Shown piece by piece: positions 42,475 to 49,637 of a DNA stretch of 64,000 bases. The notes under the pieces were generated by a model. It saw only the letters and a program-made list of their open reading frames with translations, made no database searches and was not told where the DNA came from. Source of the stretch: Promethearchaeota archaeon (GTDB taxonomy: Archaea > Asgardarchaeota > Thorarchaeia > Thorarchaeales > Thorarchaeaceae); assembly GCA_014728035.1 (NCBI GenBank), contig WJMJ01000128.1, positions 16,139 through 80,138 of the forward strand, read 5' to 3'. The position numbers were made by a program, and so were the translations under genes. How positions within the stretch are numbered: position 1 is the stretch's first letter; every line of letters starts with the position of its first letter.

Positions 42475-43098
42475 TCACTCTTTCTGACGTTCTTCAACAA
42501 GCGTCTTTGCTAATTGTTCAAAGATGTCAACAATTCCTTGTCCTGTCTTCGCACTTGACTCAACATAAGGCATGTCATGACGTTCTGCGAATTCTTTGCC
42601 CTCTGCAGGGTCTACAACACGATCTGGTAGGTCTGTTTTATTAGCAACAAGAACTAAAGGTATTTTCTTTCCTAGTGCTTTCTCTAATTCATTCAGCCAT
42701 TCTTCAAGAACGATAAACGTTCTTCGTCGACTAACATCATAGACGAGAATTCCACCACTAGACCCACGATAGTACATTGGACGTAGAATCTGAAAACGAG
42801 ACTGGCCAGCAACATCCCAAATTTGAAGTTTTACTGTTAGAGGATCACCACTACGGGAAGGGATCTCAAGGTTCTTCACGGCAAATTGAGAGCCGATTGT
42901 TGTCTTGTAATCTGTACGGAAAAATCCATGAGAGAAGCGTGTAACAATAGCAGTCTTACCTACTGCTCCTTCCCCTAGCACAACCACCTTAAACAGGAAA
43001 TCATAGCTACTACTCACGTGAACGCCTCGTTTGATTTTATAGGGAGTGGTCGAATCGAAATTCGACAATAACTTGTCCAAATCGTCAAGAAATGGCAA
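42475..43098 (-). CDS. Rab-like small GTPase
   Basis: GEGAVGKT, TTIGSQF, KLQIWDVAGQ, YYRGS, LVYDVS, NKTD, SSAK; no C-terminal Cys. Confidence 0.93.
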   Translation of the reverse strand: MPFLDDLDKLLSNFDSTTPYKIKRGVHVSSSYDFLFKVVVLGEGAVGKTAIVTRFSHGFFRTDYKTTIGSQFAVKNLEIPSRSGDPLTVKLQIWDVAGQSRFQILRPMYYRGSSGGILVYDVSRRRTFIVLEEWLNELEKALGKKIPLVLVANKTDLPDRVVDPAEGKEFAERHDMPYVESSAKTGQGIVDIFEQLAKTLVEERQKE

Positions 43099-45436: not shown

Positions 45437-45567
45437 GGTGGATTCCAAAAAATATGATTCTGATTTGCGGAATAACAAAGTCTATCAAATAGAACACACA
45501 TAAGCAAACAAGGTTTATAGCACAATTAAATAAAATCAGATATGATTACTTAAAGGTCTGAATAGCC

Positions 45568-45963
45568 ATGGGCGACGACGAAGATTTCATTATGGAAGAA
45601 TTTGAATGGGCTCTTAAGGACCCGACCGAAGAAAAACTACGCGAACTTGGAGAAGTAGTTAGCACAATAACAAAGAAATTGATTGAATTCATTGAATCAC
45701 TCCAATCTGAAGTCGCCGGATTAAGGTCGGAAGTTGGAGGGCTCGAATCAAAAATTGGCTCTCTCGAATCTAAGATGGCCTCTGGTTCTTTCACACCCTC
45801 ATCATCAGCACCATCTTCAGCAGCTGATGCTGCTCCTGCAATGGCAAAGGCACCCACAGCGAGAGCACCCCCACCTAAATCTAGCGCTGGGGGCGGCGGT
45901 GGAATGATGGGCGAACTCAAAGCTCTTCTAGCAGCTCGAAGAAAGAAAGCAGAGGGCAGCTAG
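45568..45963 (+). CDS. Coiled-coil, Pro/Ala-rich protein with C-terminal VASP-FAB/WH2-like motif
   Basis: Heptads LQSEVAG-LRSEVGG-LESKIGS-LESKMAS; APPP; GGGGGMMGELKALLAARRKKAE; TATA-like TTTATA upstream at ~45514. Confidence 0.8.
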   Translation: MGDDEDFIMEEFEWALKDPTEEKLRELGEVVSTITKKLIEFIESLQSEVAGLRSEVGGLESKIGSLESKMASGSFTPSSSAPSSAADAAPAMAKAPTARAPPPKSSAGGGGGMMGELKALLAARRKKAEGS

Positions 45964-45967
45964 TTAC

Positions 45968-46681
45968 TCAGAGCAGTGTTTTGACACTGTTTTCAGGATA
46001 GAATGGTCCTGCATGTTCTGGTAAAGAGATTGTAAAAGCTTCTGCACGTTTTACATCAGCTTGTACGCCCCGTAGACGAGTTCGAGCATCATACAGTTTC
46101 TCATAGAAATCATTAGCTTTTGATATCTGTGATTTGTGCTGCTTCAATGCCCGAAGTGCAGTAGAGTAGGATTCTGAAATATCTACTTGGATGTGAGGGT
46201 GAGAATGTAAAGAGTTGATCTCCATATGATAGATCCTTTCTACACGATGGGCGTTATCAAAAATCGTAATATGAGATGCCCACTCAACTGCTTGTTGTAC
46301 TATTTGGACGCAAATCTGGTGATTTCTGTTATAATCATCTTCAGAATGTGTGATAATGATAGTTGGACGTGACTTGAGAATTGTAGCCACTACCTCGTGG
46401 ACCATACTCATGTCTATATCAAAATCATCCCGTTCACTAAGATAGAGATTTCGCACACCAAGAACTGTACACGCCTTTTTCAGTTCCTCATTTCGTTCGT
46501 CATTACCAGTCATACAATGAACATCAACTGGAATGCCATTTCTCACATGTTGATGAATCGTTCCTCCAGCACCTAAAGATTCATCATCAGGATGAGCAAC
46601 AATAACGAGTAGAGAAGGAGATTTACCAGACATAATGAGTGCTTTTCTTTTCTTCAATATCAACATTGTGAAAGAAAGCAA
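45968..46681 (-). CDS. bshB1: PIG-L family deacetylase, BshB1-like
   Basis: AHPDDE, RNEE, VDIS...HKSQ, AEAF; divergent from bshA; real start probably MSGKS (~46633). Confidence 0.75.
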   Translation of the reverse strand: MLSFTMLILKKRKALIMSGKSPSLLVIVAHPDDESLGAGGTIHQHVRNGIPVDVHCMTGNDERNEELKKACTVLGVRNLYLSERDDFDIDMSMVHEVVATILKSRPTIIITHSEDDYNRNHQICVQIVQQAVEWASHITIFDNAHRVERIYHMEINSLHSHPHIQVDISESYSTALRALKQHKSQISKANDFYEKLYDARTRLRGVQADVKRAEAFTISLPEHAGPFYPENSVKTLL

Positions 46682-46734
46682 TATGCTCCTACCACTGTTC
46701 TTAAAGGTGGGCTAAATTAGTTAGTAACAAAAAG

Positions 46735-47907
46735 GTGAACTACTTGAAAATAGGAGTGAATATGTATCCCTCCGTCGGAGGTTCTGGATACCTTGCTACA
46801 AGATTGAGCCAAAATCTTGCACATCGAAATCACATAATCCACTTTATCACCTATGAACGTCCATTCTCTTTGATGTGGGAACAACCAAAAGGGATTCACG
46901 TCGATCTTGTTGATAGATTTGATTATCCATTATTCAAAGCAGTTGGTCCCCCATATTCAATGGCTCTTACGTCAAAAATACTAAAGGTTGTCAAAGAGGC
47001 GAAATTGGACCTTATTCACGCACATTACGCAATTCCACACGCAATGTCTGCTTATATGGCACGAGAAATCTCTGGCATACCATATGTAGTTACATTACAT
47101 GGCTCTGATGTACACACTCTTGGTCTTGATCCAGCATACAAACCAGTAGTTCAATATACTGTCCAGAAAGCTAATGCGGTTACTGCAGTTTCTGAATTTT
47201 TAAAGGAAAAGGCAGTAAACGAACTGGGAATAGAACGTAAGATACATGTCATTCCAAACTTCATTGATGTAGAAGAATTTCAACCAGCCAATGATTGCAG
47301 ATTGGTAGTTGAAAGCGGATGTGTTTCTTTACGACAGGTTGAGGATCCGGAGGCAATCCATCCAGAGGAAAAGGTTCTCTTGCATGCATCAAACTTCAGG
47401 TCGGTAAAACGAGTTGTGGATATAATAGAAATCATGAGGATTGTTGTCGATCATCAACCTGAAACACGATTGATAATCGCTGGAGACGGGCCGACTCGAA
47501 TAGAGGTGGAGAGGAAAATCGAGGCATTGGATTTGTGTAATCATGTTCACCTCTTAGGAGTCAAGAGTAATATCCAAGAGATTATGTGTTCGGCAGATTT
47601 GTTCATACTGAATTCCACACTGGAAGGAATGCCATTAGTACTCTTGGAATCCATGGCTTGCCAATTGCCCATTGTTACAACTCCAGCAGGAGGAATTCCT
47701 GAACTCGTTCGACCGGGACTGGATGGAGTGGTTACAAAAGGATTTGAGCAAGAAGAATTTGCAGAAGCTATCATTGATTTATTAGTTGATGACAAAAAGA
47801 GAAAAAGATTTGCAGTGGCTGGAAGAAAGCGAGTTGAAGAATCATTTTCTGCAAAGGCAATTGTACCAAAATACGAAAAGGTCTTTGAAGAAGTTGTCGG
47901 AAAATAG
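46735..47907 (+). CDS. bshA: N-acetyl-alpha-D-glucosaminyl L-malate synthase (GT4)
   Basis: YPSVGGSG, PYSMALTSK, HAHYAIPH, TLHGSD, HASNFRSVKRV are BshA hallmarks. Confidence 0.9.
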   Translation: MNYLKIGVNMYPSVGGSGYLATRLSQNLAHRNHIIHFITYERPFSLMWEQPKGIHVDLVDRFDYPLFKAVGPPYSMALTSKILKVVKEAKLDLIHAHYAIPHAMSAYMAREISGIPYVVTLHGSDVHTLGLDPAYKPVVQYTVQKANAVTAVSEFLKEKAVNELGIERKIHVIPNFIDVEEFQPANDCRLVVESGCVSLRQVEDPEAIHPEEKVLLHASNFRSVKRVVDIIEIMRIVVDHQPETRLIIAGDGPTRIEVERKIEALDLCNHVHLLGVKSNIQEIMCSADLFILNSTLEGMPLVLLESMACQLPIVTTPAGGIPELVRPGLDGVVTKGFEQEEFAEAIIDLLVDDKKRKRFAVAGRKRVEESFSAKAIVPKYEKVFEEVVGK

Positions 47908-47921
47908 GATGTCATTATTGT

Positions 47922-49637
47922 ATGAAACCAAGTATCTTTCGAGTCTATCAGGAGTTCATTTGGAAAGAAGAGCATAAAGAATTAGCAGAAAAGCTCTATG
48001 ATGATCCTATCAGAAAAATGGGAAGCCTAGTATCAAGAGGAAAAACTATCCTCACAAAGTACAAAGAAACAAAATGGTTTACTCAAGAGAGAGTTGAGGG
48101 TATTCAGCATGTTTTGACAGAGATAAACAAAGAGATAGGATGTCTCACCCCAAAAGTGAGTGATTCGATAACGAATCTCCATCAAGGAGCAGTCGAATCT
48201 GCACATCAAACAGTAGTCATGGGTGGACCGGGATACATATTGAACAAAGCTGCTTCTGCAGTATCAATTTCAACCTATTGTGGTGATAACGGATTCCCTG
48301 TCACTCCATATTTCTGTGTTGCTGACTATGATGTAGTACAATCCGAGTTGACTAACATTAGAACACCGAATATGGGTCAGAGTGGAAATCTGGTAAGCAT
48401 CCCAGTTCCAGAAGGATACGAGAACTCTCCTGTAAGTCATCTTCCATTACCTGGATTCGAGTGGTATTCAAAGATAGAAGAATCAATTCGATCAAGCTAT
48501 CGTCCCTTCTTTAAGATGTTAGAAAGAACAGCTCATACACTCTTCGCTGAAAGACTTGAGAACTGTTTAACAGTAACACGGGATGCATTTGTGAACTCAA
48601 CTACACTGGGAGAATGGGCGACTAGAATACTAGGAAAATTGTTCAATATCATTGGAGATTTGGGAATACCTCTAGTTCCAGCTGGAGATGTCAGGCTTCG
48701 AAAATACATTTGTGAAGGACTAGAATACCTACTTCAAACAAAGAATCGTGAGATATTCTTGAAAGCCCACGATGAAGCTACAAGATTGATTACTAACAAC
48801 GGATATGCTTCTGGCGCAGGACCAAGAGGGCGTGATTACGTTCCATTTCTCTACGAGTGTCCTAATTCAGGATGTAACAGAAGCAGGACTGAACTCAATT
48901 ATCAAGATGTTGGAAACAAAGCAATTCTTGAAGGTAAATGTATTGAATGTGGAGAGCAGATTCAGATTGAAGTCGATAAAGATTCACCAGATCTATCAGA
49001 ATATGCGCCCTATCTTTCGTTGCGTGTCGATTCTAGACAACTTGCGATAGATACAATCATACCTACAATAGCCCATGTAGGGGGGCCTGGAGAAACAGCA
49101 TATTATGCACAAGTAATTCCAGCTGCTAAGATGATGAACGAGCCATTTCCATTATTTATGAGATATCCCAGAACATATTTCAACACACCTTGGACTGAAA
49201 CGTTAGGCAAGGAACTGAAACAAAAAGAGATTCCTGTTCTTCACGAGGGGAAGCTCTTCAAGCTTAGCGGGAAGGTCAACAAGTTCAGAAGGAAAGAACA
49301 GTTCGAGAAAATGAATGAAGCGATCTTTGAATTTAATGCATTCATTCATCAAGTTCATTCACAACTCAACGATACGCATGAGCAAAAAGTACAAGAAATT
49401 GAACAAGCATCCGGTGAGAAGTATGACAAATTGCAGATGCTCAAGTTAGATATAGAAAAATATCTCAGTTGGACATTTGGACAATACGCACCAAAAAAGC
49501 TTGGTCAAGAGTCAACATGGTCATGGATAGAGTGGGCATTGAATTCAGGATTCACTGATCTCTTTGGAGCTTATCATAGGGCACACTCAGAAGGATTGAA
49601 GAATGGCGCAACGCTCTTTGTGAATTTCATGGTATGA
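47922..49637 (+). CDS. bshC: Bacillithiol biosynthesis cysteine-adding enzyme BshC-like
   Basis: SAHQ..MGGPGYILNK, VADYD, PTIAHVGGPGETAYYAQ...PR; 571 aa; helical C-terminus; follows bshA. Confidence 0.82.
   Translation: MKPSIFRVYQEFIWKEEHKELAEKLYDDPIRKMGSLVSRGKTILTKYKETKWFTQERVEGIQHVLTEINKEIGCLTPKVSDSITNLHQGAVESAHQTVVMGGPGYILNKAASAVSISTYCGDNGFPVTPYFCVADYDVVQSELTNIRTPNMGQSGNLVSIPVPEGYENSPVSHLPLPGFEWYSKIEESIRSSYRPFFKMLERTAHTLFAERLENCLTVTRDAFVNSTTLGEWATRILGKLFNIIGDLGIPLVPAGDVRLRKYICEGLEYLLQTKNREIFLKAHDEATRLITNNGYASGAGPRGRDYVPFLYECPNSGCNRSRTELNYQDVGNKAILEGKCIECGEQIQIEVDKDSPDLSEYAPYLSLRVDSRQLAIDTIIPTIAHVGGPGETAYYAQVIPAAKMMNEPFPLFMRYPRTYFNTPWTETLGKELKQKEIPVLHEGKLFKLSGKVNKFRRKEQFEKMNEAIFEFNAFIHQVHSQLNDTHEQKVQEIEQASGEKYDKLQMLKLDIEKYLSWTFGQYAPKKLGQESTWSWIEWALNSGFTDLFGAYHRAHSEGLKNGATLFVNFMV

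Follow-up and report, generated by a model that had tools for sequence, protein, structure and literature searches.

A near pan-Asgard coiled-coil protein family ending in a VASP FAB-like helix: a candidate actin-assembly factor

The window analysed here, a stretch of 64,000 nucleotides from a Promethearchaeota archaeon of the Thorarchaeaceae, encodes a 131-residue protein which, as judged from sequence searches, belongs to a near pan-Asgard family that is present in most Asgard lineages and is mostly single-copy. For this protein, a coiled coil is predicted, together with a flexible arm at whose end sits a conserved basic amphipathic helix. On balance, it probably acts as an oligomeric actin-filament tethering or elongation factor, a candidate actin-binding adaptor that would work in the manner of VASP's EVH2 half, only with the parts rearranged.

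Asgard archaea crawl and form actin-filled protrusions, and their known actin regulators are profilins and gelsolins only. Filament nucleation machineries are yet to be found in these organisms (PMC7444086, PMC9433394), and their motility has been contrasted with systems using formins or Ena/VASP (10.1101/2025.11.30.690169). By its sequence features, the coil–Pro–end-helix family is a good candidate for the actin-assembly factor still missing from the closest relatives of eukaryotes. Since the family is small, soluble, and mostly single-copy, and has an abundant ortholog in the cultured Candidatus Lokiarchaeum ossiferum, the question of actin binding is readily testable; if such binding is true, FAB/GAB-type motifs would predate eukaryotes. 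In the openly accessible literature on Asgard actin regulators covered here, no description of this family was found.

Gene, domain layout, and predicted structure

The coordinates, strand, length, and C-terminus of the reading frame, all given in an earlier sequence-only reading of this DNA, agree with what is found by sequence inspection (Table 1). In comparison with a genome of the same genus, codons 1–74 carry 41 synonymous and 6 non-synonymous changes, while the last 25 codons carry 11 and 1, respectively; because synonymous changes far outnumber non-synonymous ones, the frame is a real gene, and it is under purifying selection. A TTTATA hexamer lies at a similar distance upstream in all seven relatives inspected, a probable TATA box that makes a separate promoter for this gene likely. 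A Pfam search with the protein, as well as with broad and N-terminal alignments, returned generic coiled-coil families at most. A search of the ESM Atlas gave unnamed Asgard clusters only, an exact-sequence look-up with eight queries returned nothing, and Foldseek with the monomer model gave no matches.

Table 1. Coordinates of the features described. Positions are those of the window except in the last row; residue numbers refer to the 131-residue protein.
Feature	Position	Strand	Description
ORF, 131 aa	45568..45963	+	Thorarchaeota member of the near pan-Asgard coiled-coil/Pro-linker/end-helix family
TTTATA hexamer	45514..45519	+	Probable archaeal TATA box, from sequence
Conserved N-terminal block, residues 8–41	45589..45690	+	Short helix, then the first part of the long one
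Canonical heptad coiled coil, residues 42–70	45691..45777	+	a = Ile/Val, d = Leu; predicted oligomerisation
Disordered Ala/Ser/Pro linker, residues 71–108	45778..45891	+	From pLDDT and Pro-run counts
Gly run and basic amphipathic end helix, residues 109–128	45892..45951	+	VASP-FAB-like putative docking motif
Bacillithiol-type bshB/bshA/bshC-like cluster	45968-49637	-	Retained across Thor loci; names assigned by sequence inspection
Rab-like small GTPase	42475-43098	-	2.5 kb upstream; kept in 17/24 Thor loci
30-nt insert in the conventional actin gene	L055:1021-1050	-	Contig C103, outside the window; also L083

In the AlphaFold2 monomer model, helices span residues 3–17, 21–71, and 112–130, with a disordered linker in between; pLDDT is 85–97 across residues 21–70 and below 50 in the linker. 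Leucines recur at 24, 31, 38, 45, 52, 59, and 66, and Ile or Val at 42, 49, 56, and 63, so that both the heptad listing and the predicted helix 21–71 bear out the Leu-heptad coiled coil proposed in the sequence-only reading. PDB profile matches of the coil are generic GCN4-type and trimeric coiled coils. According to the rule known from GCN4, Ile/Val at a together with Leu at d favours a parallel dimer, and such a dimer is thus favoured for the Thor coil.

Two blocks are near-invariant among the homologs, residues 8–41 and 113–127. Within the first, F12, A15, L16, D18, P19, G28, I34, and T35 are invariant in 94 Thor sequences, and this block is a probable second partner-binding site. The coil, linker, and end motif listed earlier as the modules of the protein are indeed all there, but the equally conserved N-terminal block had been missed. 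Within the second, M114, E116, L117, K118, L121, A122, A123, and R124 are likewise invariant in the 94 Thor sequences, and the motif M-x-E-L-x-x-L-L-x-x-R-R, on whose conservation the actin reading had been staked, is kept in 119 of 121 sequences of the larger Thor set. The 131-residue protein has no Trp after residue 14.

The linker, on the other hand, is variable across Thor homologs: its polyproline is degenerate there, while Loki orthologs have true polyproline. APPP, initially taken as a polyproline feature of this linker, is present in only 42 of 121 Thor sequences and so does not stand as a conserved one; a run of four Pro occurs in 3/121, 51/121 have no PP at all, and the longest Pro run of the 131-residue protein is three.

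Spread, long forms, and genomic context of the family

The 176 close homologs, where named at all, are Thorarchaeota hypothetical proteins. Genome searches gave a match in 81 of 85 genomes of the source organism's own taxonomic family, and a broader profile (E<=1e-4) matched 235 of 320 genomes, including 78 of the 90 high-quality ones, with the reservation that the weakest of these matches may be generic coiled coils. Two taxonomic families are almost blank with this profile (1/22 and 0/12 genomes). Distant matches, when read directly, have the same layout, with the end-helix consensus R-x-x-[IL]-[MQ]-x-E-L-K-x-L-F-x-[KR]-R, and Loki-type members carry runs of 4–5 Pro ahead of it; the L. ossiferum ortholog is located at CP104013.1:2628799-2629257. 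One genome has two tandem paralogs (L069, G124:C202:82-973). No relatives were found in the viral contigs searched, and a search for longer proteins bearing the tail gave none at E<=10, which is weak evidence. The N-terminal tree of the family has no resolution at depth, and hence no order of events is supported by it.

In three Heimdall-type genomes, the family profile finds its best match in a protein of about 300–320 residues, with relatives of up to 395. When a profile of these long forms is aligned with that of the family, the match covers the N-terminal 54 columns (hhalign 95.4%, E 1.7e-8), and the long forms thus appear linked to the short family largely through the coiled coil. Most of them also have one or two end-helix matches at 11–24 bits with a profile built without them; the match is missing in two members of one family. 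The long forms also bear, after the Pro/Gly region and before the end helix, one to three repeats in which a short amphipathic helix leads into L-[KQT]-K-[AV], so the order of parts is that of VASP. By eye, the repeats follow a WH2/GAB pattern with one extra residue relative to the N-WASP spacing; Pfam WH2 does not match them, and VASP GAB scores only 8.3 bits on the repeat profile (top 1.4e-4). The end helix is followed by an acidic patch, and the tails contain no Trp. In two Heimdall-group homologs (L169:541-1725 + and L172:687-1844 +), as many as some 15 near-perfect G-G-P-N-L repeats precede three helix-LKKV-type repeats.

The coil–Pro–helix module, or its tail, is also seen at the C-terminus of Arf/Rag-like GTPases and HEAT-repeat proteins (P0179, P0196, P0240, P0244, P0265; L121; P0230, L114). 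Unrelated Asgard proteins contain the end-helix motif at 23–33 bits (L106:277-1905 +, L096:1429-1809 +, L119:1312-2232 -), one of them being a tyrosine-recombinase-like (integrase-like) ORF. The recurrence of the motif in unrelated proteins suggests that the end helix may be a reusable docking motif.

In the window, the gene is preceded by a phosphohexomutase-like gene and is convergent with the bshB/bshA/bshC-like cluster, all named from sequence inspection. Thor synteny is conserved, and the neighbours are metabolic: the mutase and the bshB-like gene are kept in all 24 Thor loci. Such constancy would agree with an accessory protein of the phosphohexomutase or the bacillithiol-type genes, unrelated to the cytoskeleton. 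However, the gene has a TATA-like box of its own, the bsh genes are convergent to it, and in the further Asgard lineages inspected it sits among different genes; this role is very improbable.

The genome encodes a conventional actin, a divergent actin-like protein, a two-domain gelsolin, and a profilin-like protein (C25, 33% identical to a relative's candidate), none of them near the 131-residue gene. Thus, an actin gene, whose absence would have spoken against the actin reading from the start, is present. The second, divergent actin-related gene is located at L056:1411-2517 -. The conventional gene bears an insert of 30 nt with an in-frame stop just ahead of the last helix (Table 1). The insert has a bulge-helix-bulge intron shape (fold z -3.9), and without it the protein reads Q-K-M-W, as in relatives that have no intron; at the identical site, another Thor genome carries an insert of different sequence.

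The immediate upstream neighbour of the family gene in 10 of 15 Loki-type loci is a gene for a three-helix protein of 206 residues, on the same strand where inspected. BAR domains are the best matches of its model (arfaptin, Z 13.6, rmsd 4.6 over 186 residues; Foldseek E 0.007–0.02); a Z of 13.6 is about the level that helical bundles reach by chance, and BAR domains nonetheless fill the top ranks. This unannotated BAR-fold gene is found at L067:764-1381 + and in nine other Loki-type loci, and also at L185:1480-2100 -. In L. ossiferum, the ortholog of this BAR-fold gene has another location, and its position corresponds to neither Bar1 nor Bar2 of 10.1101/2025.11.30.690169. A search of the window's genome with the 206-residue query did not find the gene.

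The end helix and the proposed function

In human VASP, GAB occupies residues 223–239, FAB residues 259–278, and the coil residues 343–380 (PMC10340426). Against residues 109–128 of the Thor protein, the FAB is identical at 12 of 20 positions, the comparison having been picked post hoc and spanning 14–20 residues. When the 3,512 proteins of this genome are scanned with FAB, the 131-residue protein ranks first both with the Gly run (63 vs 36 for the next protein) and without it (39 vs 32). The resemblance, which had been claimed in the sequence-only reading, holds against the published sequence and is far above the genomic background. A profile of 48 non-Thor members gives FAB 18.3 bits, with the next background window among about 1.15–1.16 million at 14.3; a broader 79-member profile gives it 14.4 bits, which seven background windows (again among about 1.15–1.16 million) reach. 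By extrapolation, a human-sized proteome would contain a few to tens of equally good chance windows. The N-WASP C helix (sequence from PMC5217673) places the protein at rank 67 of 3,512, and VASP GAB at rank 414. As the family profiles score FAB highly and N-WASP C comes 67th, the likeness is a property of the family and is closer to FAB than to C. Neither Pfam nor PDB searches matched the end helix or the Heimdall repeats to VASP, WASP, or WH2. The PDB sequence searches, which used the full and the end-helix profiles as well as the tail and the repeats, gave no actin regulator, and FAB itself may be missing from PDB sequences. Taken from sequence comparison, the FAB likeness is a strong lead for homology with VASP, short of proof. 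A reading as an ESCRT-III MIM1 motif was considered and dropped on the sequence pattern alone.

The rank of the C helix also bears on the idea that the family is an ancestral WASH/WAVE-complex subunit or a nucleation-promoting factor, with a CCDC53/BRK1-type coil and a central (C) helix activating actin-related proteins. One Heimdall member does pass the Pfam CCDC53 cut-off (25.5 vs 24.6 bits), but it is the only one of 14 to do so, the 131-residue protein does not, and the N-terminus alone of a near-identical sequence falls to 16.8 bits. A weak HSBP1 match in 6 of 45 N-termini, the acidic patch behind the helix in Heimdall forms, and the second actin-like gene of the genome point in the same direction; against them stand the far worse fit of the C helix compared with FAB, the lack of an acidic Trp motif in the 131-residue protein, and PDB matches that are generic coils. 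ArpC2 was not found in a search of the genome, with an uninformative control, and the actin-family genes are two only. We regard this idea as unlikely.

The L. ossiferum ortholog can be followed in published proteomes and a Lokiactin co-IP (10.1101/2025.11.30.690169). The masses in that work are monoisotopic (Arf, 38.10 kDa), and since the upstream Elf1 gene (24.03 kDa average mass) fits the tag GNAMCCOK_02218 (24.01 kDa), we infer from gene order and this mass that the ortholog is GNAMCCOK_02219. It is present in all 16 proteomes at a mean log2 abundance of 18.47, between profilin Pro2 (17.38) and actin (21.69). Gelsolins and a profilin are enriched in the co-IP, while GNAMCCOK_02219 is not among the enriched proteins and is absent among the co-IP rows listed, which go down to a log2 ratio of -1.06 and leave 841 rows aside; the background is high, with Elf1 itself enriched (log2 1.36). 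This absence is evidence against stable stoichiometric actin binding, and weak or filament-end binding would be compatible with it. The co-IP-enriched Arf (38.10 kDa, L130) was considered as a carrier of the coil–Pro–helix module, which is absent from it.

The co-IP result would also suit a more general coiled-coil adaptor of the membrane/small-GTPase system, whose end helix would dock onto acidic lipid or onto a partner other than actin, be it a BAR protein, a Rag/Arf-type GTPase or its regulator, or an AAA ATPase, the FAB likeness being convergent. Other Asgard proteins carry the full module behind Arf/Rag-like GTPases and HEAT repeats, the end motif is seen again in proteins of no relation to the family (the integrase-like ORF, for example), Loki-type loci have the BAR-fold neighbour, and the searches against VASP, WASP, and WH2 families were negative. 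Still, such an adaptor leaves unexplained the helix-LKKV-type repeats of the Heimdall forms and the closeness of the FAB match, and eukaryotic actin-assembly factors likewise show GTPase and BAR links; for BAR proteins, the link is established in the IRSp53–VASP pair. An adaptor of this kind is a real but less probable explanation.

If the family is indeed an actin tether or elongation factor, its action may be pictured as follows. The coiled coil of residues 21–71 would be parallel, with a dimer as its likeliest state in Thor and possibly a trimer in other lineages. The hydrophobic face of the end helix (M113/M114, L117, L120, L121) would dock in the cleft that separates subdomains 1 and 3 of actin, while the Arg/Lys cluster of the same helix would touch the acidic actin surface. 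Two or three arms would provide avidity, so that the protein might hold a filament end or cross-link filaments, and the N-terminal block 8–41 would anchor it to a membrane-shaping or GTPase partner. For the Thor form, which has little polyproline and no G-actin-binding repeat, tethering or bundling is likelier than fast processive elongation; in the Heimdall forms, the additional WH2-like repeats could further allow monomer loading or nucleation.

Of the steps in this mechanism, the loading of profilin is the weakest. The polyproline recruitment of profilin suggested in the sequence-only reading fits the runs of 4–5 Pro in Loki members but is weakly supported for Thor, where the Pro run is not conserved. 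Moreover, Thor profilin binds polyproline (10.1101/2021.08.06.455371), whereas Loki profilins reportedly do not (PMC9433394; 10.1101/2021.08.06.455371), so the run is weakest where profilin could bind it and strongest where it reportedly could not. A wider proposal, tentative and rather doubtful at present, is that the family is an archaeal forerunner of eukaryotic oligomeric actin polymerases and nucleation factors, which would couple the ends of Lokiactin filaments to BAR-shaped membranes and GTPases, tandem WH2/GAB repeats having been gained in part of Heimdallarchaeia to give the VASP EVH2 order before eukaryotes.

Comparison with known actin-assembly systems

The closest parallel is the EVH2 half of Ena/VASP with the preceding proline-rich region. 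Both have a basic FAB-like helix behind a Gly run, an oligomerising coiled coil (predicted here), and a flexible Pro-containing arm, and the Ena/VASP order of Pro region, GAB-like, and FAB-like parts is matched by the Heimdall long forms. However, EVH1 is missing from the 131-residue protein, which is all helix and coil and has no such Pfam match; profilin-binding polyproline of GPPPPP type is absent in the Thor form, unlike in many Loki orthologs; GAB (WH2-like, with the KLRK motif) is also absent there, GAB-like repeats being seen in Heimdall forms only; and the VASP coil is a C-terminal right-handed tetramer, while the coil here is N-terminal with a 7-residue repeat. Lacking both EVH1 and GAB, and with a coil of another kind, the protein is not a member of the Ena/VASP family. 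The initial proposal of an Ena/VASP-like regulator is supported in part, in line with the FAB match, Loki polyproline, Heimdall repeats, and the Loki BAR neighbour.

With WH2 (PF02205), the 131-residue protein shares an amphipathic helix but has no LKK[TV], and a PF02205 search of this genome gave zero matches. The VCA factors of WASP/WAVE/WASH, together with CCDC53 and BRK1, are similar in having a coil at the N-terminus, a Pro region, and an amphipathic helix like C, and Heimdall forms share WH2-like repeats and an acidic patch with them; the poor C-helix fit, the missing acidic Trp, the marginal CCDC53 match, and the Arp2/3 subunits not found set them apart, and the 131-residue protein is not a WASP-type factor either. 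Among the tandem-WH2 nucleators are Spire, Cordon-bleu, and VopL. The Heimdall long forms have in common with these three proteins two or three spaced helix-LKKV-type repeats and an oligomerisation coil, though Pfam WH2 does not recognise these repeats, and the 131-residue protein lacks them. Finally, Asgard profilins and gelsolins (PMC7444086, PMC9433394) occur in the same genomes and use the same actin cleft that is the proposed target of the end helix, while in sequence and fold they are unrelated to the coil–Pro–end-helix family.
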